A stretch of 20,000 bases of DNA. It comes from Scenedesmus sp. PABB004. Lineage: Eukaryota. Below, piece by piece: positions 535 to 20,000 of the stretch (its first letter is position 1; each line of letters starts with the position of its first letter). The notes beneath the pieces were generated by a model. The model ran no database searches and was not told the origin of the DNA. It saw only the letters and a program-made list of their open reading frames with translations. The stretch spans positions 671,690 to 691,689 of the forward strand of contig JABVCE010000022.1 of assembly GCA_014905635.1 (NCBI GenBank). Reading direction: 5' to 3'. The translations under genes and the position numbers were made by a program.

Positions 535-3500
535 ATGGACCGCGGGCGCGGCCGCGGCGGCTACGGCGGCGGCCCGGGGCGCGGCGAGGGCGGTGCGCGG
601 CGCGCTCGCGCGGGGCGCATCCCGCTCGCCTCTCCGTGGCACGGAGGGGCGTGGGCCGTCCCAGGCCGGCGCTGCCGCGCCCCGACCGTGCCCCGAGACG
701 GCCCAGGCGGCGCGCGCGCGTCGCGGCGGCCCGCGCGCCCCGATCTCGGCGCTGAGCAGCGGCGCCGCCGCTGCTGTCGCGCGCAGGCTACGGCGGTGGC
801 TACGGCGGCCCGCCCGGCGGCCGCGGCGGTGGCAGAGGTGAGCGAGGCGCCTGGGACGGGGACGCGCAGCGCCGTGGCGCGGCGGGCAGGGGCGAACTGG
901 CGCGCGGCGCGCGGCGCGCCGCTCAGCAGCAAGCTGGCGCCCGCGCGGCGCGCCCCGCGCGCAGGCTACGAGGGCGGCGGCGGCCGCGGCGGCTACGGCG
1001 GCAGCGGCGGCGGCGGCTACGAGGGCGGCGGGGGCCGCGGCGGCGGCTACGAGGGCGGCCGCGGCGGCGGCTACGAGGGCGGCGGGGCCGCGGCGGCGGC
1101 TACGAGGGCGGCGGGGGCGCGGCGGCGGCTACGAGGGCGGCCGCGGCGGCGGCTACGAGGGCGGCGGGGGCCGCGGCGGCGGCTACGAGGGCGGCGGCGG
1201 CCGCGGCGGCGGCGGCTACGGCGGCGGCGGCCGCGGCGGAGGTGCGGCGCGCGGCAGAGCCGGTGGCGGTGGCGGCGGCGGCGGCGGCGACGGCGCGGGG
1301 GCGGCCGCGCCAGGCCGCTGCGCCCGGCCCCACGCTGCGCCCGCCGCCCCCGCTCCCCCCTGCGCGCACAGGCGGCTACGAGGGCGGCCGCGGCGGTGAG
1401 CGGCCGCAGCGCGCTGCGGGGCCCGCCAGCTTGCCGCCAGCCTGCCTGGCGCGGCCAGAGCCGCCGACCCGCGCTGGCCCGCTGCCACCCCCTCCTCTCT
1501 CTCCCCCCCTCCGCAGGCGGCGGCTACGGCGGCGGCGGCGGCGGCGACTATGGTGGCGGCCGGGGCGGCGGCGGCCGCGGCGACTTTGGCGGCGGCGGCC
1601 GGGGCGGCGGGCGCGACTTTGGCGGCGGCGGCCGGGGCGGCGGGCGCGACTTTGGCGGCGGCGGCCGCGGCGGCGGGCGCGACTTTGGCGGCGGCCGCGG
1701 CCGCGGCGGCGGCCGCGTGTCGGGCGGCGACATGCAGCTGCCCCTCGACCGCGCGCTGTCGGAGCTCTCGGCCGCGTTCTCGCGCGTCAGCGTGCGCGGC
1801 CCCGAGGTCGTGCGCTGCGCGCGCGGCAGCGTCGTGCCGACGCGCGCGCTGCGCTCGCGCGCGGGCGGCGAGGGCACCGCGGGCACGTCCATCGCGGTGC
1901 GCGCCAACCACTTTTCGCTGAGCCTCAACGCCAGCCAGGCCTTCCACTACGACGTCAGCATCGACCGCCTGCTCAGCGAGGAGGAGGCGGCGCGCGCCTC
2001 GCGCCGCAAGGCGCCCGCGCGCGCGGGTGAGGCCCGCCGGCCTGGCGTCCGTGGGAGGGGGGGGGGCGCACGCCCCGAGGGGCGCGCAGGCCCGCCTGCG
2101 GCGCGCGCCGAGCCGCGCCCCGCCGCCCCGCCCCGCGCCGGCCGCCGCCGCGGCGCGCCCCGCAGGCCCCGACCGCGGGCTGCCGCGCCCGATGGTGCGG
2201 CGCGTGCTGCTCGCGCTGAGCGCGCAGGAGGGCTGGGGCAGCGTCGGGTGGGCGAGCGACTGGGGCAAGAACATCTACGCGCCGTCCGCCTTCCTCGGCG
2301 TCGGCGGCGGCGAGCCGCGGCTCTACACCGTGCGCACCCAGTTCACCGCGCCCGACGGCAGCGCCGTGGACAAGACCTGGACGGTCGCGATCAAGTACGC
2401 CGCGACGGTCGACCTCAGCGCGCTGTCCGCCTACATGGCCGGCACCGAGGCGGACGAGGAGATGCCGCGCGCGGCCATCCAGGTGCTCGAGGTCGTCATG
2501 CGCTCCGGCGTCAGCGGTGAGACCCACACCCGCGCCGCGCGCGCAGCGCGGCGCGCCGGCCGCCTCGCCGCCGGGCCTGCGCAGGCGCCGACGCCCGCCC
2601 GCTGCCCGCCCGCCTCGCGCCCGCCGCGCGCGCCGCGCGGTGCGCTGCAGCGCGTGAGAACGCGCTGGTGATCGGGTCGAGCGTGTTCTTCCACGTCCCG
2701 CGCGACCCCAACCTCTACATGGCCCTCCCCGGCGGCGCCGAGGCGTGGGCGGGGTACCGCCAGGCGGTCAAGCCGTGCCAGGGCGGGCTGACGCTCAACA
2801 TCGACCTCGCCGCGACCGCCTTTCTCACCAGCGGCCCGCTCCTGCGCGTCATCTGCAGCGTGCTCAACCTGCGCAACCCCGGCGAGCTCATCGGCCCGCA
2901 AGGCCTGCCGCCGCGCGCGATGCGCCAGCTCAAGGAGACCGTGCGCGGCGTGCGGGTGCGCCCCGCGCGCGCCCGTTCCTGCGCGCCCGCTCGAGCCCCT
3001 CGCGCCCGCGCGCCCGTGCTGCGCGCCGGTGCTGCCGCCGCCGACGCGGCGCCGCCTGCCCGCCGCGGTCAGGTCGCGTACCACTGCCCCACGGGCGTCA
3101 TCCGCAACAAGCTCGTGCGCGAGATCGGCAGCCGCGGCGCGGCGCAGACGATGTTCAAGCTCGACGACGGCCGCGAGGTGCCGCGCGCGCCGCGCCGCTC
3201 GCAGCGCGCCCCCCGCTCACGCGCGCCCCCGTCCGCGCACCGCCCGCGCCGCCGCAGGTGAGCGTGGCGGCCTACTTTTCTGTCACGTACAAGCTGCAGC
3301 TCCAGTTCCCCGGCCTGCCCCCGCTCAACGTGTCGAGCCAGCCCGGGCGCAAGGTCTGGGTGCCCATGGAGCTCTGCCAGTGAGGCGGCGCGCGCGCGGC
3401 GGCGGGAGGCGCGGCGCGGCGGGAGGGCTGCGGCGGCCGGGCGACGCGCGCGCGGCGGCGCGGCCGTGCGGGCGGGCGCCGCCGCGCCGCGCCGACGCCG

Positions 3501-6025
3501 CCGCGCGCGCCGCCGCGCAGCGTCGTCGCGGGGCAGCGCCGGCGCATGCTGAACGAGGCGCAGACGACGGGCATGCTGCGCTTTGCGGGGCTGCGCCCCG
3601 ACGAGCGCGGGGCGTACCTCACGCAGGTCATCTCGCGCGACGACCTCGGCGGCTTCAACAGCGGTGAGCCACCGCGCCCCCCGCCCGCCCGCCGCGCCGC
3701 GCGGCCGGCCGCGCCGTGGGGCACGCCGCGCTCACGCCGCTGCCGCCGTGCCGCGCGCGCGCGCGCGCCAGACCCCGCGGTGCGCGCGTTTGGCATCCAG
3801 GTCGAGACGGCGATGAAGACGGTGCAGGCGCGCGTGCTCAACCCGCCCCTGCTCGCGTACGGCAAGCCCGAGGCGCTCACGCCCGGCACGCGGGTGCGCC
3901 GCGCCGCCGCCTGTGTGCGGCCGCCTCGCCACCCGCGCTGCTGCGCGCGCCGCTCGCGCCGCCGCCCTCGCCGCCGCCCGCGCCGCCCGGGTCGCCGCCC
4001 GCGCCGCCGCTCCGCCGACGCCGCCCCGCGCCGCTGCGTGCGGCAGGGGTCGTGGAACCTGCGCGAGGTGCGCTTCCCTGCGGGCGTGGTCATCAGCAGC
4101 TGGGCGTTCTGCAGCCTTGTCGACCCGCAGTACCTCGTGCCGGACGGCGAGACGGGGACGCAGACCTTCCTGCGCGACCTCGTGCGCATGTGCAACAGCA
4201 CCGGCGTCGAGTGCCCGCCGCCGGCTATGGGCCCCTGGATCCCGCGCGCCGACCCCGAGAGCCTCATCCGCGCCGCCGCCGAGGCCGCGACGGCGCACTT
4301 TGGCAGCAAGTGCGGCGCGGCGCGGCGCGGCGCGCGCGCGGCGGGGCGCCGACGCCCGCGCGGCGCGCGGCGGGGCGCCGACGCCCGCGCGGCGCGCGGC
4401 GCGGCCGGCGCGCAGGTGCCAGATGGTGCTGGTGCTGCTTGAGCGCAAGCAGACGAGCGGGTCGAGCCCCTACGCGTTTGTGAAGCAGGCGGGCGACAGC
4501 GTGATGGGCCTGCGCACACAGTGCTTTGCCGCCGACAAGGCGGGCGTGGGCCGCAACGCGCGCCCCCCGCGCGGGCGCCAGCAGTACTGCGCCAACCTCG
4601 CCATGAAGGCGCGCGCGCGCGCGCCGCGGGGGCAGGGGCGCTGCGGGCACCGGGGGCGGCGCGCGCGGCAGCAGACGGCTGCTGCGCCTGGCGCTCACCG
4701 CGCGCGCATGCGGGGCGCGCCGCCCGCCGCCAGATCAACACCAAGATGGGCGGCGTCAACGTCAAGCTCGTCGACGACCCCGCCGCCGTGAGCGCCCGCG
4801 CCCCGCTCGCACGCGCCGGGCAGCGCGCGCCGCGCGCCGCCGCGCGCCTCCGCGCCTCCGCTCCGCCGCGCGCCCACGCCCCGCGCGCGCCGCCGCGGCC
4901 GCGCGCCGCAGCCCAAGGCGGTGCCCGTGGTGGGCACTGTGCCGTTCATGATCTTTGGCGCCGACGTGACGCACCCGACCTCGTTCAACCCCGACGACCC
5001 CTCCATCGCCGCCGTGTGCGCGAGCTACGACCGCACGCTCGGGCGCTACATGAGCCGCGTGCTGCGCCAGGCGCGGCCGCGCCGCCGCGCGCGCCCCGCG
5101 CGCGCCGCCCGGCCCGCCGCGCGCCGCCCGCCCGGCCCGCCCCGCGCGCGCCCGGCGCTCCTCCCCCGAGCGCCGCCCGCCCCGCCCCGCCCCGTGCTTT
5201 GCAGGGCCACCGGCAGGAGGTGATCGGCGCGCTGAAGGACGTCGTCGCCGACATGCTCAAGGAGTTTCACCGCCGCAACCGGGGCCACAAGCCCGAGGCG
5301 ATCATCTACTACCGCGACGGCGTCGCCGACAGCCAGTTCCCGGCCGTGCTGGAGCACGAGTACACCGCGTTCCGCCAGGCGCGCCCGCACGCGCAGCCGC
5401 GCGCGCAGCCACGCGCGCGCGCGCGCGCGGCCGCGCTGCGCACGACGCACGCGCAACGCGCGCGCCCGCGCCGCTCGGCCGCGCCGCGCCCGCGCCGCTG
5501 ACCGCCCCCCGCCGCGCCCGCGCCCCATGCGCGCAGGCGTGCTACAGCCTGGAGGAGGGCTACTGCCCGCCCATCACGTTTGTGGTGGTGCAGAAGCGCC
5601 ACAACACGCGGCTCTTCCCCGCCGACCGCGCGGGCGCGGACAACAGCGGCAACTGCCTGCCCGGCACGGTCGTGGACAGCGGCATCTGCCACCCCACGCA
5701 GTTTGACTTTTACCTCAACAGCCACGCCGGCCTGCAGGGCCACAACAAGCCCGCGCACTACCACGTGCTGGTCGACGAGAACGGCTTCAGCGCCGACGCG
5801 CTGCAGCTCTTCACCTACTGGCAGTGCTACCTCTACTGCCGCTGCACGCGCAGCGTGAGCTACGTCCCCGCCGCCTACTACGCCCACCTCGCCGCGTTCC
5901 GCGGCCGCCTTATGAAGCGCGAGGGCGAGGAGGGCAGCGTCGTGTCGAGCGGCAGCGGCGAGCGCGCGCTCGAGGTGCTGCCGATCCGGGACGACTACGC
6001 CAACCAGTGCATGTTCTTCGCATGA
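535..6025 (+). CDS. AGO: Argonaute (eukaryotic AGO clade), 17 exons, ~1133 aa if the two single-base deletions in exon 3 are corrected
   Basis: Exons read by hand: 535-592, 787-837, 965-1241, 1372-1395, 1517-2026, 2166-2516, 2651-2955, 3073-3177, 3258-3379, 3521-3663, 3772-3893, 4047-4309, 4416-4608, 4734-4787, 4912-5070, 5205-5378, 5537-6025. Motifs: N domain (VRANHF..FHYDVSI), L1 ([18 protein letters not shown]), PAZ ([25 protein letters not shown]), MID (YAFVK..TQC, NLAMKINTKMGG), PIWI ([67 protein letters not shown]), C-terminal MFFA*. Confidence 0.96.
965..1716 (+). repeat. Coding tandem repeats of the AGO glycine/arginine-rich N-terminus ([14 protein letters not shown] units in exons 3-4; [11 protein letters not shown] x4 in exon 5)
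   Basis: Repeated ggctacgagggcggc...ggccgcggcggc units at 965-1241 and gactttggcggcggcggccggggcggcgggcgc-type units at ~1582-1716. Confidence 0.9.
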
Positions 6026-6380: not shown

Positions 6381-6504
6381 CGCCACCAAGTTGCGGCTCA
6401 GGCTCAGTGGCTGGTCGGCGCCCGCCCGGCAGCAGCCCCCCGGGCCCAGCCGCCCTCGCCTGCGCCGCCGGGCGGCCCTGGTGCGGGTTGACCGGGCTCC
6501 GCAG

Positions 6505-7975
6505 TCGCCGCGCTGTTGCCAGCGCACGCCGTCTTCGGCGGCGCCGAGGACGACGGCGCCGGCGCGGCGGCTGCTGGCATCAACACGGGCGACCCCGCCG
6601 CCGCTGTGGCGGAGCTGCCCGAGGACGTGGAGCAGGCCAAGGGTGCGCTGAGCGCGCACGCGCCCCGGCACCGAGCACAGCACGCGCTATGCGCGGCCAG
6701 CCGCCCCGGCCCCCGCGCCCGCACACCGCGCCCGACCCCCCGCACGCGCGCCCGGCCGCGTGCAGCCGAGGTGCTGCCTGGCAGCGACGCGGAGATCACC
6801 GACTGGATGGCCGACACGCTTGACGCCGCAGCCGGCGCCGCCGCGGAGGGCGGGGGCGGCAGTGGCGGTGGCGTTGGCGGGCTGCGGTTCATCAACTTCA
6901 ACACCGCCTCGACCTACAACCCAGGGCTGGGCTTTTTCGTCGCGCTCGACGGCGCGGCGCGGCTCGCACGCCTGCTGCCCGCGGCGGGCCTGGTGTCGCT
7001 GAGCCCGCCGGGCAGCCTCTACGCCGACACGCCGGTCGTGGACGACGTGAAGGTCACGCTCGACTTTGACCTCTCCGCGCCCCTCGCAGCGCCGGTGGGG
7101 GGTTAGGCGCCCTTCTCGCGGCGCCGCCCGCGCAGGCCCCGCCGCCGCAGCGCGCGCCGCCCCACCCCTCGCCCCCCTCGCCCCCTCGCCCCCCGGCCCC
7201 GGGCCCCCCGCGCCGCCCCGCTGCCGCTGTCAGTGCTGGCTGGACGGCTACCAGCAGTTTGCCGGCGTCCCCTACGCGCCCAGCCTGGTCGCCATCATCG
7301 ACGTTCGCGCGGTGCTCCCAGGCAGCGCCAGCAGCGCGCCCGTGGGCTGGGCGTGCCTGCCCGTGTTTGAGCGCGCCGGGCGCCACGTCGCGAGCGGGAC
7401 GCACCACCTGCCCCTCTTCCAGGGCGTGCCCAGCGCGCAGCTGCTCGCCGACCTGGCAGCCGGCGACCCCGACGAGGCCATGGCCGCCGCCATCCGGGTG
7501 CGCCGGCGCAGCTGCCCGCGCGCCGGGCGCCCGCGCGCGCGCGGCGCGCGCCACCCCCGCGGTGACCTCTGCCGCCGCCGCCGCCGCCGCCGCCGCTGCC
7601 GCGCGCGGCGCGCAGGCGGGGCGCGTGCGCCCGAGCCTGGAGTGCTCCAGCGTGCTGGCGCGGCTCATGTGCGGCACGCGCCAGGGGCAGCTCGAGGCGC
7701 CGGCCTGGAGCCTGCCGCTGGCGGAGCTGCGGCTGCCGCGCTACGTGGCGAGCGAGCTGGGGCCGCGCTTTGTGGGCGAGGCGCGCAAGGCCATGCGCAA
7801 CAAGACCTACGCGCAGGCCAAGCCCCCGGCCCTGAGCGACGCGGCGTGGGTCGACAGCATCGCCGACACGCTCATCAAGGTCGCCGGCCTCGACGCGGCG
7901 CTGCCGGGCGGCGGCGCGGACAGCGGCGACGAGGGCGAGGGCGAGGGCGGGCGCGAGGCAGGCGGCGCGGCCTAG
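6505..7975 (+). CDS. Uncharacterised protein with a C2-like beta-sandwich region; 5' end missing or unresolved (possible gene fragment), ~362 aa visible
   Basis: Phase-consistent GT-AG exons 6505(or 6523)-6642, 6766-7094, 7234-7497, 7616-7975 with coding-like codon use. Peptide: ..YNPGLGFFVALDG..SLSPPGSLY..DDVKVTLDFD..CWLDGYQQF..LVAIIDVR..VGWACLPVFE..VASGTHHLPLFQG..SVLARL. The GW..LPVF..SG...LPLF pattern recalls C2-type domains (inference). There is an in-frame TGA at 6489 and no ATG until 6807. Confidence 0.7.
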
Positions 7976-8681: not shown

Positions 8682-10196
8682 TCACACAGCCACCGCGCTG
8701 ATGTTGATGGCGGCCAGCGCGGCGCACGCGGCGGGCTTGCCGGCGCCGGCGGCCGCAGCGCTCTGCAGCTCCGGCGCGGGCGCCGCGTCGGCCGCGTCGC
8801 GCTCCTCCTGCCGCGCGTGCTTGCGCCAGCCGGCCTCCACCTGAGCGAGGCGCTGTGCGCGGCGCTCCGCCTGCAGGGCCTTGAGCTTCTCGCGCCAGTC
8901 CAGCACGAGCGGCTGCGTCCCCAGCAGCTTGCCCACCAGGCCGGCGCCGGCGCCCGCCGCGGCGGGCCTGGCCGCGGCGGCCGCGGCGGCCGCTGCCGCC
9001 GCGGCCGCCTCCTCGGCGGCCTCGCGCCGCGCGCCCGGGCGCTCGGGCCAGGTGTCGCGGCGCACCGCGCGCATCTCGGGGCTGTCCTCCAGCACCACCA
9101 CGGCGGCGAGCGCGCGCCCGCCCGCCTCGGCCTCGGCGCAGCCGTCCCGCCACGTGACGCGCTTGCTGAACCTCGGGCTGCTGCCCGCCGAGCTCGCGCT
9201 CCCCGCGCGGCTGACGAGGATGCTGCGCGGCCGCCCGCTGCTGCTCGCCACGCTCAGCACGCTGCTGTTCACCGACGCCGCGCTGCACAGGCTGCTGCTG
9301 CTCGCGCTGCTCGTCAGGCTCGCGTCGCAGGGCGGCAGCCCGTCGTCGCTGCCGCAGTCGCTGCCGCCGCTGCCCACGCGCGCCAGCGGGTGCGCGAGCG
9401 GCCCGTCCGCCGCCGGCGCGCCCGCGGCGCACGGCCGCGCGGGCACGGGCGACGCCGGCGGCGGCGTGGGCGGCTTGGCCGGCGGCGGCGAGCGCGGCGA
9501 CGGCGGCGCGGCCGCCGCCGCCGGCGCCTGCGCCGGCGCGCTGTGCGCCCGCGGCGCGAGTGGCGGCCGCTGCGCGCCGCCCGCGGCGGGGCGCTCGGGC
9601 GCGCGCGGCGGGCGGCGCTGCTTGTCGCCGGGGCTCGCCGCCTCCGGCGCGGCGCGCGGCGTGCCCGGCGCGCTGCCGGCGGCCGCCGCCGCGGCGCGGC
9701 GCGCGGCGGCCTCCGCGTCCGCCTGCCGCGCTGCCTGGGCCACCAGCTCCATGAGCGATAGCGGGGCGCCGCCGCCGCGGGCCTCGCCGCCGCCGGCGCG
9801 CGGCGCGCCCGCGCCGACAGTTGGGGCGCCCGCGCCTGGCGCGCCCGGCGCGCGCGGGGAGGGCATGTCCGGCGTCCCCGGCGTCGCCGGCGGGCTCTGG
9901 CCCGCCAGCGGCGCGCCTCGGGGCGGGGCACCCGGCGCGCGGGGGGATGGCCCAGCGCCTCCGCTGGCCGGTGCGGCGCCGTCTGCGCCGCTGCGCCGGC
10001 CCGATCGTTCACCGGTCTTGGGTCGGGGCGGTGGGAGGCCAATCATGTGCGCCGGCGCCTCCTCGCGGCCGCAGTGCGAGGCCGGCCAGGCTGGCGCTGG
10101 CGCGTCCGCCTCCACGCCGCCCCGGAAGCGCCGCGGCGGCCCCGCAGAAACGACCGCCGCCTCCCAGGCCGGCCGCGCCGGCGTGCCTCGCGACAT
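8682..10196 (-). CDS. Hypothetical intronless Pro/Ala/Ser-rich protein (504 aa) with SILK-like and RVxW motifs and a short C-terminal helical segment
   Basis: ATG-to-stop ORF containing non-random segments (LSLMELVAQAARQADAEA; SLCSAASVNSSVLSVASS..RSIL..KRVTW; LVGKLLGTQPLVLDWREKLKALQAERRAQRLAQVEAGWRKH). It fills the gap between flanking genes. The start codon is uncertain. Confidence 0.65.
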   Translation of the reverse strand: MSRGTPARPAWEAAVVSAGPPRRFRGGVEADAPAPAWPASHCGREEAPAHMIGLPPPRPKTGERSGRRSGADGAAPASGGAGPSPRAPGAPPRGAPLAGQSPPATPGTPDMPSPRAPGAPGAGAPTVGAGAPRAGGGEARGGGAPLSLMELVAQAARQADAEAAARRAAAAAAGSAPGTPRAAPEAASPGDKQRRPPRAPERPAAGGAQRPPLAPRAHSAPAQAPAAAAAPPSPRSPPPAKPPTPPPASPVPARPCAAGAPAADGPLAHPLARVGSGGSDCGSDDGLPPCDASLTSSASSSSLCSAASVNSSVLSVASSSGRPRSILVSRAGSASSAGSSPRFSKRVTWRDGCAEAEAGGRALAAVVVLEDSPEMRAVRRDTWPERPGARREAAEEAAAAAAAAAAAAARPAAAGAGAGLVGKLLGTQPLVLDWREKLKALQAERRAQRLAQVEAGWRKHARQEERDAADAAPAPELQSAAAAGAGKPAACAALAAINISAVAV

Positions 10197-10966
10197 TGCC
10201 TCGGCGAGGCGTGCGCCAACGCCTAGCGGCCGGGCCCGGCGCGGGGCGTGCGGGAGCCCATGAGGGGCGGTGTGCTTGGGGGACCGTCTCTGCGGGCGCG
10301 CGGGGGCAGCGGGGCACCTGGCGACGCGCGAGGCGGTGCGCGCGCAGTCGCCTCAACCATGTCGCGACTGGCTGTCAGGCGCGAGGCGACGCCTGGCCTC
10401 GCCAAAAACTGCGCGGCCAGGGTGGCGGGGCGCGCGCAGCTGCTTGGCGCGCGGCGGCGGCCGCCGACGGCCGCGCGCGCCGGCCTCATCCACAGCCAGG
10501 CACCAGCAACCCACCACCGCCAACGCGCCGCCCCTGCCAGCGCTGCGCAGCAGCAAGCCATGCGCACCTGCCAGCCCGCCGAGCGGGGCGGCGAGCTGTG
10601 GCGCGCGCGCCCGCCTGAGCTCGCGCCGCCCCGCGCGCTGCCGCGCAGGACGCAGCGCGGCGCCTGGTCGCGCGAGCGGCGTGGTGGAGCTCAACCTCAT
10701 CGCGGAGGACACAAACCAGTACGGCCAGCACAGGTGCGGCCGCGCGGGGCAGCCGGCTTGCTGGCCGAGGCGTCGTTGCCGCTGTGCGCGTCGGAGCACG
10801 CACCCGTGCAGGCGCGCGACGGCCGCGGCGACCGATCGGCAAGCAAGAGTTCCAGCATTGCAACAGCAACTCCGGAGCACGCCCGGCGGCGCGACGGCGC
10901 CCTGCGCGCCCACCTGCCAGCCACGCGCGCGCCGCTCGCCCCGCTCGCGCGCCCACTCTGCCGCCC

Positions 10967-12037
10967 TCACTCCGACGTGACGTCGATGGCCGGCCCCTCG
11001 CCGGCCTGCTGCTGCCGCTGCTGTGCGCCGCGGCGCCAGCTGCCCTCGCCGGCGGCGAGGCGGCCGGGGCCGCCCGGCTGCCGGCCCGGCGCCGGCTTGC
11101 GGGCGCGAAGCTTCGCGGCCGCCACGGCCTGCCCGTCGCCCCGGGGCACGCCGGCTGCGGCCTCCGCTGCGTCGCCGGTCGGCTGCTGCGGCTTGGGGTC
11201 GGGGCTGGCCGCGTCGTCGGCGCCCGCGCGCTCGGCGCCGTGCGCGCCGTCGCCGCTGGTGGCCGCCGAGCCGCTGGCGCCGCCGTAGGGCATGAGCACC
11301 TCCTCCAGCCGCGCCGGCGGCGCACCCGCGCCACACCCCCACCCGGCGCCCGGGCTGATCAGCTGGCCCACGCTCTTGAGCGTGCCCAGGAACAGCTTGG
11401 AGCCGGCCTCGCCCGCCCCCGCCGGCGCCGGGGGCGGCGCCGCCTGCTGCGCTTGCTGCCGCTGGGGCCGCGCCGCCGTCTGCCCCGTCGCGCGCGCAAA
11501 CGCCGCCTTGCCCCGCTCGACTGCGCTCCCCACGGCGCTGCCCAGCATCGCCTCCACCTGCCGCGCAACGTTCGGCCTGACGGCCTCCGCGCGCGCGCGC
11601 TGCGCCGCCTGCGCGTCGCGCCCCTGTGCCAGCGCGGCGCGCGGCGGCGCTGGCCGCGGCGCCAGCTGCTCGCCGCCGCGCGGTGCGCCCCCGCTGCTGT
11701 CGTCGCTGCCGCTGCTCAGCAGGTCGCACGTCTCCGGGGGCGGCCTGCCCGCCTGCTGTGGGCTCAGCTCCAGCTCCAGCTGGGAGCGCCCGCCCTCGCC
11801 CGCGCTGCCGCCGCCCTCGCTGGCGCTCTGCGCGGCCTCCTCCTCCAAGCAGCGCCGCGCCAGCTGCGCCTGCTCCTCCTCTGTGGGGGGCCGCGGCGCC
11901 TCGCCGGGCCGGAGCACGACGCCGCGCGCTTGCGCCGGCCGCTCCGGCCCGCCCTCGCCGCCGCGCGCCCCAGCTGCTGCGCCGCCGCCGCGCCGCCTGC
12001 CCTGGCGGCCCTGCTGCTGCTGCTGCTGCTGCTGTTG

Positions 12038-12084
<47 letters not shown>

Positions 12085-13407
12085 GCTGGCCCCGCTCGCG
12101 CTGCTCCATGTGCGCGCCCAGGACCTGCTCGAGCCCCCGCTGGGCGACGTCCTTGATCGCCGCCTGCCCGCCGCGAGCGGGTCAGCAGTGTCGCGCGGCG
12201 CGGCGTGAGAGGGCGGCGGCAGCAGCGCAGAGCTCGCAGCAGGCAGCCCTGCTGGCTTGGGAGCAGCCCCGCGCAGGCGTGCAGGGCAGCAAGCTGCGTG
12301 CGGCGCGGGCGCGCGCCGCTCACCAGCAGTGGGCGCAGCAGCTCCTCACCCAGCTCCTCGTCCAGCGCGGGCAGCTGCGCGGTGATGAGGGCCAGCATGC
12401 GCCGCGCCTCACCCGGCGGCACCGCCGCCGTGCCGACCTTGCTGGCCAGGTCGCTGCCCAGGTGCGCAAACGTGCTCTCCAGGCCTGCGCCGGCGCAGCG
12501 TGCGGCGTGCGCGGCAGATGCGTCGGGGCCCGCAGCGCCCCCGCGGCGGCGGCGGCTGCGCCTGTGGCGGCCACCTTTGCGCCGGGGCAAGCGTCCCCAT
12601 GACTCACGCTTGCTCAGGTCCGTCACTGCGTGCGGGTTGTCGCCAGCCGCCGCAGCCAGCAGCCACAGCGCCTTCTCCCTGTGGTCGTCGGCCGCCGCCG
12701 CGCCTGGGCTGCAGTCGTCGTCGCTGCACAGGTCGACCGTGTCAGCACCAGGCCCGCCCTGCTCGTCCATATCCATGGCCTGCGGCTGCTGCGCCTGCGG
12801 CGGCGAGGCCGGCGGCGGCGCGTCCACATCCATGGCCTCGGCCTGCGTTGCGTCGGCGCAAACAGGCGGGGGCGCACAGCCTTAGCGGCAGCTGTCGCTG
12901 CAGGACTGTGATGCCAGACAGCTGCGTGGCTGGACACCCCACCCCACCCCCCGGGCTGGGCCGCCCACCTGGTGCGTGCAGCGCGCCGGCTGCGCCTGGC
13001 CGCCCTGGCGTGCTGCTGCCGGCCCCTCCTCGGCTGCGGACGTGTCCTGGTCGCTGGTGCACGCCGACTCGCCCGCGTCATCAAAGGTCCTCAGCGGAGC
13101 CCGCTGCCCTGCTGGCACCTTGACGCCGCACCCGGACGGGCCCTGCTGCTGCTCCTGCTGCTGCTCCTGCTGCTGCGGCTGCGGCTGCTGCTGCTGCTGC
13201 TGCTGCCGCTGCCGCGCCTGTCGCTTGCCGGGCGGCTGCTCCTGGGCGCGGTCGTCGCTGTCGCTGTCGCTGCACCACTCGGGCACGCCCGGGTGCAGCC
13301 GCTTGACGGCCACGCTCTGGGGCTCCCAGTTTTCGTCGTCGTCCAGCAGCTTTCCCCCGCCGCCTGCCACGCCGGCAGCTGCGGGCTGCTGGTGCTGGTG
13401 CTGCTGT

Positions 13408-13452
<45 letters not shown>

Positions 13453-16400
13453 AGCTGCTGCTGGTGCTCCTGTCGCGCGAGCTCCGCCTGGGTTGGTCGC
13501 CGCGCGCCGGCGGCGCCGCGCTTGCGCTGCGCCAGGTGCTGCCGGTGCTGCTGCAGCGCCTCGTGCACACGCGGCCAGTAGTCGGCAGGCTCCACGTACG
13601 CGTACACGGGGCTCAGCCTGCGGCGCCACACGCGGCGGGGGCGCGCCGCGGCTCAGGGGCGGCGCGGCGCGCAGCGGCGCAGCGCCAGCGCCGGCGCGTG
13701 CCGCGCGGGGCGCCTCACTCTCCGGGCTCCTTTTGCTGTTCCACGCGCGCGCGCGCGGCGTCCACGGCCGCGTGGTAGTCGGCCACCTCCGCCACCGCCG
13801 CGGCGACGGCCGTGGCGTGCTTGTCGGGCGCCTGGTCGACCATGAGCTGCAGCAGCTCCGCCCGCAGGCGCGCGCGCAGGCACGACGCGACGGCAGGGTC
13901 AAACCACGCCTCGCTCAGCAGCAGCGGCTGGTGCGCGCAGAGGGCGCCTGCGGCGGCGGCGGCGGCGGCACGCGCAGGCGCGGCGGGGGCGTCGCGGCGC
14001 GGCGGGGCCGTGGAGCGAGCGCAGTGCCGCTGGTCCGAGGAGCACCCGCGCTGAGCGGCAGCGCCGGGGCGTCGGCGGGGATGCGCACCCGTGCCCTTCC
14101 TGTTGGCCTCCACCGCGGCGATGCTGATGACGCGCGGCGCGGCGGCGGCGAAGAAGTTGGCATACGTCAGCACAAACAGCCCGCAGTCGCAGTGGTTGTC
14201 CTGCTTGGGCAGCCACGCCAGGCGCTTGAACGGCAGCGCCTGCGCGGCCGCGCGGCGGGGGGAGGGCGTCGCGGCAGCCGGCGGCCAGGGGCCGCGTGCG
14301 GCGGCGCTGCGCGCGCAGCGAGCGGTGAGCGCAGCGCGCGCAGCGCGACGCACCTGGCCGCTCAAGTCGAGCGCCTCTGGCGCTGCCGCCTGCGCGCCGT
14401 CCGCTTGCGCCGGCGCGCGCTCCCGCTCCGCGCGCGCCTTCCACTCCTGCTCCAGGTACGTCCGCAGCGCAGGGGCGACCAGCCGGCTGCCGTTGTTGTG
14501 GCCGCCTGGCGCGTGCGCGCGGCGCGGGGGGGGGGGGGGGGGGCTCAAAGCGCGCACGAACCAGCCACCACACCCCCCCCCCCCAGCGCCCCCCGTCCCG
14601 CGCGCGAGAGTTGAGGCGCCGCACCCGCCATGCTGTCCAGGTGCAGGATGCAGGGCGTCGCCGCCGGCGCTGCGTCGCAGGCGGTCCCCGGCTGCCCCGC
14701 CGTCGTCGCCGCCTGGCGCGCGATGGCTGCCGCGCCCGCCGGCGTGCGGGCCGCGCCGCCCGTCGCGCCGGCGCCGAGCAGGCGCGGGTGGCAGACGATG
14801 GCGAGGCTCCAGTGCAGCGCGTCGTGGATGGGCACGACCAGGAAGTCTTTGCCAAAGATGTCCACGCCCTGCGCCGCACGCGGGCGGCGGGCAGCGCGGG
14901 CAGTGGGCGCGCCGGGCGCAGGCGCGCGCGCCGCTGCCGTGCCGCGCGCGCGCCACCCCGCCGCCCCCGCCGCGGCGCGCGCCTTGGTCCACGACTTGAC
15001 GCGCGCGTGGCTGCGCTGCGCGGCGGCGGCCTTGCCGGGCTTGGCGGCGCCCGTGTCGCGCTCGGTGAGCTTTTTGAAGAAGAAGGAGTTGAAAAAGTGC
15101 CACCGCCCCGCCTCGCCCGCCGGCAGCGAGCTCTCCAGGCGCCTGCGCGCAGCGGCGGGGCCCTGTGCACGCGCGCGCGCGTGCAATGGCGCGCCGCGCC
15201 GCGCCGCGCCGCGCGCGCCGGGCCCGCCCGCTGCGCCCCTGCCCTCCCCCCCCCCCTCACTTGAGCGCGTAGTCGATGACCGTGTCGTTCAGGAACTCGT
15301 CCGGGTCGAGGCGGGCGAGGTCGTCCGGCGTCACGCGCACAGCGCCGCGGCCGCCGCCGGTCGGGAACAGCGCCGCCAGGCCCTGCGGCGCCGGCGCGGT
15401 ACGTGGGCGCGGGCAGGCACGTGGCGAGGCGCCAACGTGGCACGCTGCGCGGCGGCACGCGGCGCGCGGGCGTGCACCGCAAACTTGATGGCCGCGCCGG
15501 GGCCGATGTCGACGCTGATGCGCGCGCTGCGCCGCCGCGCCGCGCCGTCCTCCTGCTGCGCCAGCTCGGGCGCGGCGCCGTCGTCGCCGTCGTCGTCGCT
15601 GTCGCCGATGGTGATGGGCGTGTCCTGCGTGTCGCGCCGCGCCGCCTCAGCGCGCCGCGCCCAGCCCCGCGCTTGCGGCGCGCCGCGGCGCACGCCCACC
15701 TTGCTGCCGTGCCTGCTCGACCGCGCAGCGGCGCTGCCACGCTTGCTGGCGCCCCCAGCTGCGCCGCCACCCACGCGCGCCGGGGCCTGCGCGGGCACCT
15801 TGTCCGAGCGCAGCGGGGCGGCCTGCGGGGGTGCAGCGGGCACGCCCCGTGTGTGCAAGAGCGCTCGAGCAGCGCCCGCCCGTGATTGCGTCGGGCCGCC
15901 GCACCGCTGCTCTCACCTGCACGCGCCCCGGCGGCACGCTGCACTTGCCGCAGACCTTGCCATGCGCGTGCGCGATGCTGCTCGGCGGCAGGGGGCCCCC
16001 GCACTTGCTGCACTTGGCCGCCACGCTCCTGCGCAGCAGGCGCGGCCGCAGCCGCTCAGACGCGGGGTGGGGCGGCTGCGCGCTGTTGCAGCACAGGCCG
16101 CGGTGCGCAGCGGCACGCGCCCCGCAGCTCACCAGCCCTCCGTGCCGGCGCCGGCGCTGCTCAGGCCGGCAGGCCCCTTGAGCGGCTGGGAGGGCGTCAG
16201 CATCAGCTTTGGCCCCCACTGCTGCTGCTGCTGCAGCGGCAGCTCGGCCTTGTACTTGGCCACAGCCGTTTGGTGCTTGGGCGGCTCCTTGTACTGGTGC
16301 TGCTCGTACACGCCTGCGCGGCGCGGCAGCAGAGGTGTGTGAGGGCGCGCAAGCAAAGGCGGCGCGCCGGCGCGCGAGCGCTGCGGCGGCGGCGTGCCCC

Positions 16401-17290
16401 CCCCCCCCCCTCCCAAGCTGCCACGCACTCCGCTCGCGCGCCGTCGGCGCCGCCGGCGGCCCCAGCGCATGCGGGTAGTCCAGCGCCACGCCGCGCCCCA
16501 CTGGCGCGCCCCGCACCGCCGGCGCCATCGCCGCCGCCTGGCGGCTGCTGTTGGCGCCGCGCGGGGGTTGTGGGCGCCGCGGCCCTGCGAGTGACGTGCG
16601 CGGGCGAGCGCCGTGAGCGCTGCGAGGCCAGGCCCAGCGGGGCGAGCCGCGCACGCGGTCCGCGCCAGGCCGCGCCACAGCCACCACGGCACCCACTTGG
16701 CCTTGGCGAAACCACCCCGCAGGACCGACTGGTGCGTGCCCAGGGTGCTGCGCACCGCCCGAGGGCGCCAGCAGCTGGTCCGCCTGCTGCTGCTGCCTCT
16801 GCTGCTGCTGCTGCTGCTGCTGCGGCGGGCGCGCACGTGCGGCGCGCGCCAGGTTCAGTCTGTGGGACGGCGGCGCGCGAAGCCCGCGCGCCGGCCCAGT
16901 GGGGGCGCTGCGGCTGCCGCCCACCTGTATCAAGGCCTTGCCGCGCTCCGCGCGCTGGCCCAGGATGACTGCCGCGCGAATGCTGGTGATCATGGCGCTG
17001 AGCTTGGTCTCGTTCTTGTTGTCGAGGATGCCCGCCAGCGAGTTGCGGTTGCTGGCCAGCTTGCTCTGCAGGTCCTGGAGGGTGGGAGACACCCTGCGGG
17101 CCTTCTCGGCCAGCGCCTCCAGGTCGGCCTCGCTCAGGTCGGTCAGGTCCCGCTCGCCCGGCAGCGGCGCGGGGTCCCTGGGGTCCGCCTTGAGCGCCCG
17201 CATCGCCTGCGCAGCTGGATCCATGGCGCCTGCCCCCCCGAAGTCTGCGCAGAGGTGCTCATACGCCGGGCTGCGCCGCGGCTGCGCCAT
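10967..17290 (-). CDS. SUMO (ubiquitin-like) protease, peptidase C48 family, OTS1/ULP1c-d-like; 17 exons, ~1503 aa
   Basis: Phase-consistent exons (minus strand): 17290-16925, 16819-16693, 16584-16429, 16313-16133, 16028-15917, 15822-15700, 15624-15478, 15382-15261, 15142-14983, 14868-14625, 14505-14354, 14239-14089, 13947-13719, 13617-12969, 12842-12608, 12484-12324, 12163-10967. Catalytic domain: [59 protein letters not shown] (His), ILHLDS (Asp), PKQDNHCDCGLFVL (Gln/Cys), WFDPAVASCLR. Terminal exons are less certain than the core. Confidence 0.9.
12011..12083 (-). repeat. (CAG)n microsatellite encoding a >20-residue polyglutamine tract in the SUMO protease C-terminal region
   Basis: A (ctg)n run on the + strand with two ttg interruptions, in frame with the last exon. 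Further polyQ tracts lie at ~13143-13205, ~13385-13462 and ~16785-16822. Confidence 0.9.
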
Positions 17291-17628
17291 GCGGCGCGCC
17301 GGCGTGCCGCCGCTGCTGCAGCGCGCCCCGCGGGCCGCGCCGCATCACAGGCCGGCCGCCCGCCGGCGAGGTCGAAGCGGGAGAGGGCGCGGGCGTGGGC
17401 CCGTGCGGCGTCGGGCGAGCGCCGGGGCGCGGGTCGGGCGCAGCAGCACAGCAGCACGAGCCTGATGCCGCGTCGCTGTCGCCGTGCGCCTGAGCGCCGC
17501 ACGCGCGCGGCAGGCGCTGAGCCGCCTGTTAGTGCGGCGGGGCGTGGCTGGAATGGGGCGGGGCGCGCGAGGGGGCGAGCGGCGTCGGCTGCAGGCGGCG
17601 TGCGTTTCAGTCGCCCGACGCTGCGCCC

Positions 17629-17668
<40 letters not shown>

Positions 17669-17716
17669 CCGCCGCTGACACGCCGGCGCCTCCCCGCTGC
17701 GGCCGCCCGCCTCGCG

Positions 17717-19721
17717 TCAGACCGCCGCCGCCTCGGCGCGCGCGGGCAGGCCGTCGACCTGGCGCGCCGCCGCCGCCGCGGCGGTGAGGGCGCGGATGTC
17801 GCGGCACGCGGCGCCGCCCTGGACGAGCAGGTGGCGGCCGAAGCGCAGCGCGCGGCGCTCGCACGCGGCGCGCGCGTCGTCGCTGGCGATGCTGTCCATG
17901 TCGGCCGTGTGCGCGATGCCAACGAGGCGGCGGATGATGAACGCGCCCGCAAAGCCCACGGCGTCGGCAAAGAGCTCGGCCAGCAGCGCTGACTGGCAGG
18001 CCGCGAGCGCGGCGCGGCCGTTGGCGGCGGCGCTGCCCAGCAGCGCCGGCGGGCAGAGGTCGCCGCCGGCGTCCGCCTTGGCCGTCCAGAGCTCCAGGAA
18101 CCTGCGGCGCGCGCGAGGCGCTGAGCGCCAGGCAGGGCGGGCGGGCCCGCCCCCCTCGGCGCCCCCGCTGGCCGGGCCACGCCGTGCGCCGCACCGCGCG
18201 GTGAAGGTGTCCCACAGCTCGGCGATGCAGTCCAGCAGCCACGCGCGCTGCGCCGCCCTGCTGGCCGCGCCCGGCGCGGCCTCGTGGCCGTCGCTGGCGA
18301 AGAAGGCGATGAGCAGCTCGGCCGTGATCTTGGCGGGGTCAAACGCCAGCGGGCCCATGAACGCAAACTCGGGGTCGATCACCTTGCTGGCCTCGCCGGT
18401 CACCTGTGAGCGGCGCGCGCGCGGCGGCCCTCGGCGGCGGGGGCGGCGCGCGCGACGGGCCCGCCGCGCGGCGGGCCGCGTCGGCGGCGGCGCACCATGA
18501 TGCTGCCCGTGTGCAGGTCGCCGTGGACGAGGGCGTCTGCGTTGCAGCAGAACTTGCGCTTGAGCGCGGTCACGGCGGCCTTGGCCTCCGCGTCGCCGCG
18601 CAGCGCGGCCGCGTCGGCGTCGAGGTGGGGGCTGGTCCAGCGGTTGTGGTGCGAGTCGGTGTAGGGGTCTGTGAAGATGACCTGCTCGGTCAGCGCACAG
18701 AGGTCCGGGTTTGTGAACCGCACCACCAGCTCCCTGAAGCCGCGCGAGTCGAGGGCGAGCAGGCTGGTGTTGAAGAGCGTGTCGGCGAGGAAGCGGCCCG
18801 TGTGCCGCCCGACGGCGGGGAAGGTGCGGCCCGCCACGATCGCGTGGCGCAGGATGACGGCGGGCGCGCCCAGCAGCTCCATGACCACCACCGCGGCGGC
18901 GGGGTCGTACTGGTACACCTGCCGCGCGCGTGCGCGCGTGTGTGTGTGTGTGGGGGGGGGGCATGTCAGCGCGCGCCGCCGCGGGCGCGCGTGGGTGTGG
19001 GCGGGGCAGGGCGGGGCGGGGCGGCGGGCCGCAGCCGCGCCGACCTCGGGCACGTGGTCGGGGCAGAGCTTGTGCTCCAGCTGCAGCGCCTCCGCCTCGA
19101 TGCGCGCGCGGTCCTGGCTCAGCGGCCAGCCCTCGCCCACGCAGCGCACGTACGGCAGCGCCTGCTTCACGCACACGCCCCCAGCTGGGCCCTGCGAGCG
19201 CGGTTGCCGGCGGCGGCGGCATATGGTGGTGGCGCCGCCGCGAGACTGCGAGCGCGCGGGTGCGCCGGCTGGCCCCGGCCCACCAAGCCCATGCGCGCGC
19301 GAGGCGGTCACCTTGACGATGTACACAAAGTTGAGGTTGCCGTCCCCCACCTTCTCCACGGACCAGCTGCCCTCGCTGCCAGGCGGGCCCACCCGCGCCG
19401 CCAGCGCGGGCCGCGCCGCGAGGAAGGCCGCGACGCCGACGGTGCCGAGCGCGCTCACGCCGCTGCTGGCCTTGGCCGCGGGCGCGGCGCCTGGCGCGGG
19501 CGGGGGCGCGAGCTCAGCTTGGCAGCTGGGTGCAGGCGGCCGGCGGCCGGCGCCGCCAGCGCGCAGCCCCCGGCCTGCCGCAGCGCGCGCGAGCGCGGCG
19601 TACCGGCGCTGCCTGCGGGCGCCGCCGCGGCGCCGAGGCGCGCGGCGCGTGCAGCCATGAAGTCGGCCACGCGGTGCGCGCCGCTGGCGGCGTCGCGGGG
19701 CACGAGGCCCTCCTCGGTGAT
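17717..19721 (-). CDS. mtnK: 5-methylthioribose kinase (methionine salvage), 5'-truncated by the telomere; in-frame upstream remnant resembles the C-terminus of MTR-1-P isomerase
   Basis: Exons (minus strand): 19721-19604, 19490-19312, 19191-19045, 18918-18496, 18403-18195, 18101-17717. MTK motifs: VGDGNLNFVYIV, VKQALPYVRCVGEGWPL, LTEQVIFTDPY, LVHGDLHTGSIM, VIDPEFAFMGP, IIRRLVGIAH. The first in-frame ATG is at 19658 (465 aa product), but the frame stays open up to the telomere junction (ITEEGLVPRDAASGAHRVADFM). Confidence 0.93.
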
Positions 19722-19722
19722 G

Positions 19723-20000
19723 GTTTAGGATTAGGGTTAGGGTTCGGGTTAGGGTGTAGGTTTTAGTTTTTAGGTTTTAGGTTTTAGGTTTTAGGTTTTT
19801 AGGTTTTTAGGTTTTAGGTTTTAGGGTTGTAGGTTTTAGGGTTTAGTTTTAGGGTTTAGGGTTTAGGGCTTAGGGTTTAGGGTTTAGGTTTTAGGGTTAG
19901 GGTTTAGGTTTTAGGGTTTAGGGTTTAGGGTTTAGGGTTTAGGGTTTAGGGTTTAGGGTTTAGGGTTTAGGGTTTAGGGTTTAGGGTTTAGGGTTTAGGG
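19723..20000 (+). repeat. Telomeric repeat array (TTTAGGG)n, with degenerate variants at the proximal end
   Basis: The G-rich strand runs 5'->3' toward the window end. It is pure TTTAGGG after ~19925; TTAGGG, TTTTAGG, TTTTAGGG and other variants lie between 19723 and ~19925. Confidence 0.98.

Follow-up and report, generated by a model that had tools for sequence, protein, structure and literature searches.

The 20,000-nt stretch of DNA analyzed here (hereinafter the window), which is the terminal 20 kb of contig C16 of the Scenedesmus sp. PABB004 assembly (40 Mb, 80 contigs, ~79% G+C), has at its end a diverged second version of this alga's MtnA-MtnK gene, capped by telomere repeats. We consider it likely that a fairly recent terminal deletion, followed by telomere healing, truncated this redundant copy of a gene for a fused methylthioribose-1-phosphate isomerase (MtnA) and methylthioribose kinase (MtnK), and that what remains is a young, promoterless pseudogene.

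A truncated MtnA-MtnK gene abutting a telomere

Right after the telomere tract, the minus strand reads from 19721 as ITEEGLVPRDAASGAHRVADFMAAR, which opens a frame starting with ITEEGLVP. Six exons on this strand (19721-19604, 19490-19312, 19191-19045, 18918-18496, 18403-18195, and 18101-17717), separated by introns with GT-AG boundaries throughout, yield a single 486-residue open frame with its stop codon at 17719-17717. The features of the truncated gene and of the chromosome end are:

19723-20000, plus strand: telomere made of TTTAGGG repeats, with many variants in the inner zone; contig C16 has its true end here
19604-19722, minus strand: clipped exon with the last ~8 residues of the MtnA (IF-2B) domain, the C-terminal tail that follows, and the first half of the linker, equivalent to residues 346-384 of the intact fusion
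19656-19658, minus strand: first ATG past the telomere, Met22 of the open frame, which would start a 465-residue linker-plus-kinase protein
19491-19603, minus strand: 113-nt GT-AG intron inside the Ala/Gly/Pro linker, common to the intact copies
19312-19490, minus strand: exon with the end of the linker and the start of MtnK (GDGNLNFV)
19045-19191, minus strand: MtnK exon (VKQALP)
18496-18918, minus strand: MtnK exon (HGDLH)
18195-18403, minus strand: MtnK exon (IDPEF)
17717-18101, minus strand: final MtnK exon, including the stop codon

Each of the five downstream exons separately matches the MTRK model TIGR01767 (E 1.7e-5 to 1.5e-44, from a scan made exon by exon and not against the whole-protein cut-off), and the kinase motifs GDGNLNFV, VKQALP, HGDLH, and IDPEF are all present within the single open frame. 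The clipped 39-residue first exon alone has no Pfam or NCBIfam match, and its identity is therefore taken from its relatives. The sequence-only reading had held that the peptide encoded by 19604-19721 is the tail of MtnA, spliced in frame to the kinase, and both points stand: in the closest fusion orthologs the peptide aligns at the ITExG end with scores far above those of shuffled sequences, and tail and kinase share one frame across the linker intron. Specifically, a 25-residue remnant peptide scores 103 against residues 350-374 of the Tetradesmus fusion protein P0002 (maximum of 43 in 500 shuffles), 101 against P0003 (shuffle maximum 50), and 84 against P0005 (shuffle maximum 44). Its scores against remoter fusions are weak (P0006, 53, shuffle maximum 43; the moss protein P0022, 35, shuffle maximum 39), and those against two stand-alone flowering-plant kinases (24 and 22) are at shuffle level. 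The corresponding uncut exon of the intact copy matches positions 255-279 of 280 in PF01008, 310-333 of 335 in TIGR00512, and solved MtnA chains. What survives of MtnA in the window copy is ~8 residues of the Pfam domain plus the tail; the frame begins at residue 346 of the intact protein, so that the MtnA domain is incomplete, and none of the seven MtnA motifs checked is present. Thus, the copy is without a promoter, a start codon, or any isomerase active-site motif, and its kinase half is undamaged.

Intact fusion genes in the same assembly

A DNA search with window positions 17700-19724 recovers three further copies at 93% identity, on contigs C11, C39, and C53, each with IF-2B/MtnA exons directly upstream of the kinase. 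For the C11 copy, an 11-exon model built from splice signals and homology gives an open 832-residue protein without internal stops; the C39 and C53 proteins are identical. Ten introns interrupt the intact fusion gene, the first two with GC donors (L022:2320 and L022:2544), and such donors were also seen by eye in the neighboring protease and Argonaute genes (window 14982 and 4609). The intact copies carry all seven MtnA motifs (RGAPAI, RPTAVNL, THCNTG, ETRP, GADR, NKIGT, and FDVTP) at residues 47-338 and all four kinase motifs after residue 433; their exons match TIGR00512 with a best E of 1.6e-46. Collinearity between the window copy and the intact gene extends from residue 346 onward. By family membership, the C-terminal kinase of the intact polypeptide is predicted to phosphorylate methylthioribose and the N-terminal isomerase to convert the product to methylthioribulose-1-phosphate.

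Among themselves, the intact copies share 99.5-99.8% identity, and they sit in a tandem unit of ~25.5 kb that is split between three contigs; this arrangement represents either a recent amplification or assembly redundancy. Besides the intact fusion, this unit (C11:754360-784350, C53, and C39:1-11111; L021-L028, L160) carries a RimO-like gene, a scrap of Argonaute, and a truncated Ulp1 gene. As the window gene is a redundant duplicate, the organism still has the fusion. A distant second MTRK-like gene is found at C14:436548-438041 (TIGR01767, best E 1.8e-14).

The search for an intact MtnA half in this genome thus ended in these three full MtnA-MtnK genes, and no orphaned half was found among the best-scoring candidates. 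Four other IF-2B loci (C13, C16:38k, C7, and C4) were considered and rejected as the orphan, as they score weakly or not at all as MtnA; we take them for eIF2B subunits. Likewise, the assembly, which may not be complete, yielded among the best-scoring candidates no copy at ~90% of either the MtnA half or the upstream 5.2 kb, apart from a 350-bp scrap described below; the isomerase half was therefore apparently lost rather than orphaned. Accordingly, of the earlier proposal that telomere addition split off the isomerase half, the involvement of the telomere is borne out, as the repeats start directly after the last base that matches the intact gene, but the half was lost and not freed, with no diverged orphan found among the best-scoring candidates.

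Phyletic spread of the fusion

A search with the largest kinase exon as query, restricted to the 8000 best candidates and to protein lengths of 248-2000 residues, retained 99 kinase homologs, 61 of which have an MtnA half, N-terminal to the kinase in every one of the 61; among the 30 top homologs, 28 are fused. The named fused homologs come from Tetradesmus, Monoraphidium, Volvocales, Chlorella, Coccomyxa, Trebouxia, Ulva, a moss, liverworts, and a lycophyte, and the named flowering-plant homologs are stand-alone kinases of ~420 residues. With fused orthologs across the chlorophytes and three intact genes in the same assembly, the ancestral gene was an MtnA-MtnK fusion, as had been suggested from the sequence. 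The nearest named protein is P0002 of Tetradesmus obliquus (72% identical over the query exon), and in the tree the kinase clusters with Tetradesmus and two transcriptome proteins, followed by Monoraphidium (support 100/99), which marks the organism as a green alga of the Sphaeropleales type. The stand-alone flowering-plant kinases nest among fused streptophyte proteins in this tree. We observed fused forms in moss, liverwort, lycophyte, and Mesotaenium (P0022, P0055, P0059, P0070, and P0077), whereas the flowering-plant proteins and one from Closterium are stand-alone (P0054, P0064, P0071, P0080, P0086, and P0038). A literature search returned nothing evidently on a land-plant fission of MtnA-MtnK.

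The fusion is an ordinary and already known architecture. The cited passages of Salim et al., 2009 (PMC2759508) name mtnAK in Tetrahymena and also report it from Ostreococcus tauri, two Micromonas genomes, and Phaeodactylum; the Tetrahymena case recurs in the part of a review that we cite (PMC6302742). Hence, the earlier statement that such fusions have been described in ciliates is correct for Tetrahymena and too narrow, as PMC2759508 includes green algae. The intact copies are plain members of this group, with the same domain order and 832 residues as against 779 in the published account; unlike them, the window copy keeps residues 346 onward only and ends at a telomere. Like the stand-alone kinases (TIGR01767; ~420 residues in flowering plants), the window frame taken from Met22 holds the whole kinase domain and its motifs, but it differs from the flowering-plant enzymes in having ~25 extra linker residues and no promoter of its own in view, and from the plant stand-alone kinases in the tree in grouping with fused Scenedesmaceae-like proteins.

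A duplicated block with rearranged neighbors

The truncated gene is part of a larger duplicated block, whose relevant features are:

11779-19722: duplicated block, ~90% identical to C39:12731-4959; the part from 13433 to 19722 also matches C11 and C53
10967-17290, minus strand: Ulp1-family (Peptidase_C48) protease gene, located in the same block, with an open frame in the 14 exon stretches that were compared; serves as the control below
10425-10775, plus strand: 350-bp frameshifted scrap (88%) of a radical-SAM (MiaB/RimO-like) gene

Neither flank of the block has a counterpart elsewhere in the assembly, which points to a local duplication; a whole-genome duplication or a second full haplotype was rejected as the source of the copy, as the match ends at 11779 and the flanks are unmatched. 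On C16 the protease gene continues in frame beyond 11779 to a stop at 10967; on C39 its frame stops a few codons past the block edge, and on C11 and C53 it is cut earlier. The C16 version consequently has a C-terminus ~270 codons longer than that on C39 (window 10967-11779 vs L026:2731-2760). The RimO-like gene sits upstream of the intact fusion, and its scrap in the window is hence DNA from beyond the break. Conversely, 740 bp (88%) of the window's Argonaute gene are found on C11 and C53 (L021:2033-2771), within the tandem unit. These reciprocal scraps, together with the sharp edge at 11779, indicate a complex rearrangement. The Argonaute gene itself appears complete (window ~535-6025, plus strand; Piwi domain and Gly-rich N-terminus), and the differences in its 740-bp scrap are, by eye, mostly synonymous. 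Two more gene-like stretches lie between it and the protease gene (window ~6500-7975, plus strand, and ~8690-10200, minus strand).

Divergence and selection

The window copy and the intact gene are separated by 33 synonymous and 14 nonsynonymous differences (dS 0.09, dN 0.013, dN/dS 0.146; Fisher p 2e-10), and the window copy differs from all other copies by 7-10%. Its 1461 nt contain neither a stop nor a frameshift, the single indel being of 3 nt and in frame, and none of the 10 splice sites has been lost; in the introns, 44 of 518 sites differ from the intact gene and there are 12 indel events. An old, decayed pseudogene was accordingly rejected, there being no stops, frameshifts, or lost splice sites and a dN/dS that is not near 1. 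If the copy had been dead since the divergence, ~53 nonsynonymous changes and ~11 frameshifts would be expected. Given the intact frame, the retained splice sites, and the low ratio, we infer that, over most of the period since the two versions separated, it was complete and functioned as a fusion gene. The neutral part of its branch is at most about a quarter, a rough bound that takes the indel rate from low-complexity introns and assumes a background ratio of 0.10.

Nevertheless, the low ratio is mostly a record of the time before the break and not of present function. The protease-domain exons of the uncut neighbor give a dN/dS of 0.16 (whole neighbor 0.44; kinase vs protease p 0.79), so that the low kinase ratio needs no selection after the break. 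The two end branches are of equal length (0.011 vs 0.012). A window-specific change, E to K, affects a nearly invariant site that directly precedes the GDGN motif, and the intact copy has a comparable P to L change; with one such change in each, neither looks more decayed than the other. Polarization by outgroups assigns ~3-4 derived amino acid changes to each side, with half ambiguous. Of the synonymous changes toward A/T, 15 fall to the intact gene and 8 to the window copy, which hence has no signal of drift by this measure. In the 63 nt upstream of Met22 there are two changes (p 0.10 vs the intron rate). The 9% divergence could be that of either long-kept paralogs or alleles of two lineages that were later brought together.

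The telomere and its junction

Identity to the intact gene ends at 19722 and the repeats start at 19723 (junction as in the assembly), i.e., they are joined directly to sequence that continues in the uncut copy. The genomic end reads ...GGTGATG and is followed by GTTTAGG, with one G in phase with the repeat. We surveyed 100 of the 160 contig ends (60 starts, 39 ends, and the window) and found telomere repeats at 30 of them, two being copies of one end, in tracts of ~70-340 bp. The window tract resembles the other telomeric ends in length and form, and looks real and typical. Its variant-rich inner zone (~195 bp) ranks second in length among the 29 measured, whose median is 91, and this could be a weak hint that the end is perhaps not very young. 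The first 60 telomere bases have a longest exact match of 21 nt to any of the 29 other ends.

Inner variants of the TTTTAGG type occur in short tracts at the 30 telomeric ends, and the adjoining DNA is largely unshared (L061-L159 and the window). No common subtelomeric repeat was found among these 30 ends, with only small groups sharing 100-300 bp. This is consistent with another Sphaeropleales alga, which is described in the cited passages as being without subtelomere-specific repeats (PMC8287924). At the C2 end (L122), the 400 bp adjoining the telomere are repeated in inverted orientation 10 kb further in (C2:1580604-1581003, 99% identity) in a fold-back-like arrangement, and an open frame with coding-like codon use, which has no Pfam match, runs into the telomere. 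A crude codon-score screen of the other ends for cut genes gave C2 and C77 as candidates, both without an uncut paralog. A freshwater metagenome containing 6% of the words matches the intact locus in short pieces; in the 8 of 91 that were listed, the longest is 361 bases and none is near the junction.

Origin of the truncated copy

Taking these observations together, we propose that the chromosome end probably broke inside the last isomerase exon of a redundant fusion copy, that telomerase would then have added repeats onto the TG-rich broken end, and that everything distal, including the promoter and the isomerase exons, would have been lost, leaving a young pseudogene without a promoter and as yet without decay. 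The loss could be tolerated because the other copies supply both steps, and we assume the remainder to be silent. This reading is favored by the presence, on the same contig, of a diverged scrap of a gene from beyond the break, by the largely unshared DNA adjoining the other 29 telomeric ends, and by the inverted 400-bp end of C2. Against a young end that has escaped decay stands the nearby RimO-like scrap, which is frameshifted within one short exon, whereas the kinase half has no frameshift in 1461 nt. Neither ingredient of this proposal is new, as MtnAK fusions and intragenic telomere healing are both known already. In the passages cited, terminal deletion followed by telomere addition is described in Chlamydomonas lines, with 94 and 163 kb lost (PMC9977147), and healing inside coding regions in Plasmodium (PMC5550746).

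The same undecayed kinase half, at an end whose telomere looks settled, would also fit a working gene fission, in which transcription from in or beside the telomere tract and translation from the AUG at 19658 produce a selected, 465-residue stand-alone methylthioribose kinase. As the minus strand has no ATG further upstream, Met22 would be the first available, and the stand-alone flowering-plant kinases start ~25 residues downstream of it, so that the whole domain would be included; in the tree, these kinases nest among fused streptophyte proteins. Moreover, low-level antisense telomeric transcripts (ARRET) are reported at four of eight Arabidopsis arms (PMC2883606, in the passages cited). However, the room for a promoter is small (~64 nt from the telomere to the ATG), and Met22 is inherited, as the intact copy has it and so do 6 of 16 aligned fused homologs, and lies in a weak context (T at -3). 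Further, the dN/dS is fully explained by the history before the break and intact copies already supply the kinase. ARRET is a low-level RNA linked to siRNA, and the cited passages of PMC2883606 do not describe initiation inside the repeats. We therefore regard this explanation as unlikely, and slightly more so its one-step form, in which a break at the domain boundary created the gene outright, with the telomere tract being or adjoining the promoter and an internal Met starting the kinase. A targeted literature search returned no published case of telomere healing creating a working gene by fission. If true, a single alga would have repeated the change from fusion to fission that separates mosses and lycophytes from flowering plants.

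Two further explanations concern how the end came to be. The isomerase half might never have been on this chromosome if copying from a diverged allele or paralog, e.g., by break-induced replication, stopped in the exon and was capped by telomerase. Such an arrest would give the same sequence outcome as a deletion, and the sharp proximal edge at 11779 and the scraps that the loci hold of each other (Argonaute on C11 and C53, RimO-like on C16) are in line with it. However, a near-identical donor is absent from the assembly, in which the best other copies are 90-93% identical, and C16 looks like the resident copy because its protease gene alone runs on in frame past 11779 to 10967; we hence consider this origin quite improbable. 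Least credible is an assembly artifact that wrongly linked a telomere tract to a collapsed or chimeric copy. The locus is indeed hard to assemble, with its ~25.5-kb tandem unit over three contigs, but the 7-10% difference from all other copies is codon-structured, a pattern that errors would not give, the inner telomere pattern is unique (at most 21 nt of its first 60 bases match any of the 29 other ends), and the tract is like the other telomeric ends in length and form.

Comparison with known healed ends

If terminal deletion and healing are indeed the origin, as we favor, the window resembles the ends described in the cited passages on Chlamydomonas mutation-accumulation lines (PMC9977147) and Plasmodium (PMC5550746) in having repeats fused directly to coding sequence with the distal DNA missing. 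It differs from those cases, as far as the cited passages describe them, in that the cut falls almost exactly at a domain boundary, with the 5' half gone and a complete downstream enzyme frame left with an in-frame ATG. It would thus be a clean example of a known form of chromosome-end repair, for which the uncut gene is available base for base. It also carries a warning for annotation, in which this copy would pass as an intact kinase of the stand-alone type. Should the clipped copy prove to be expressed, telomere healing would be a route to gene fission, and the alga would hold a natural pair of a fused and a free kinase, 97% identical, with which to ask what purpose the MtnAK fusion serves.
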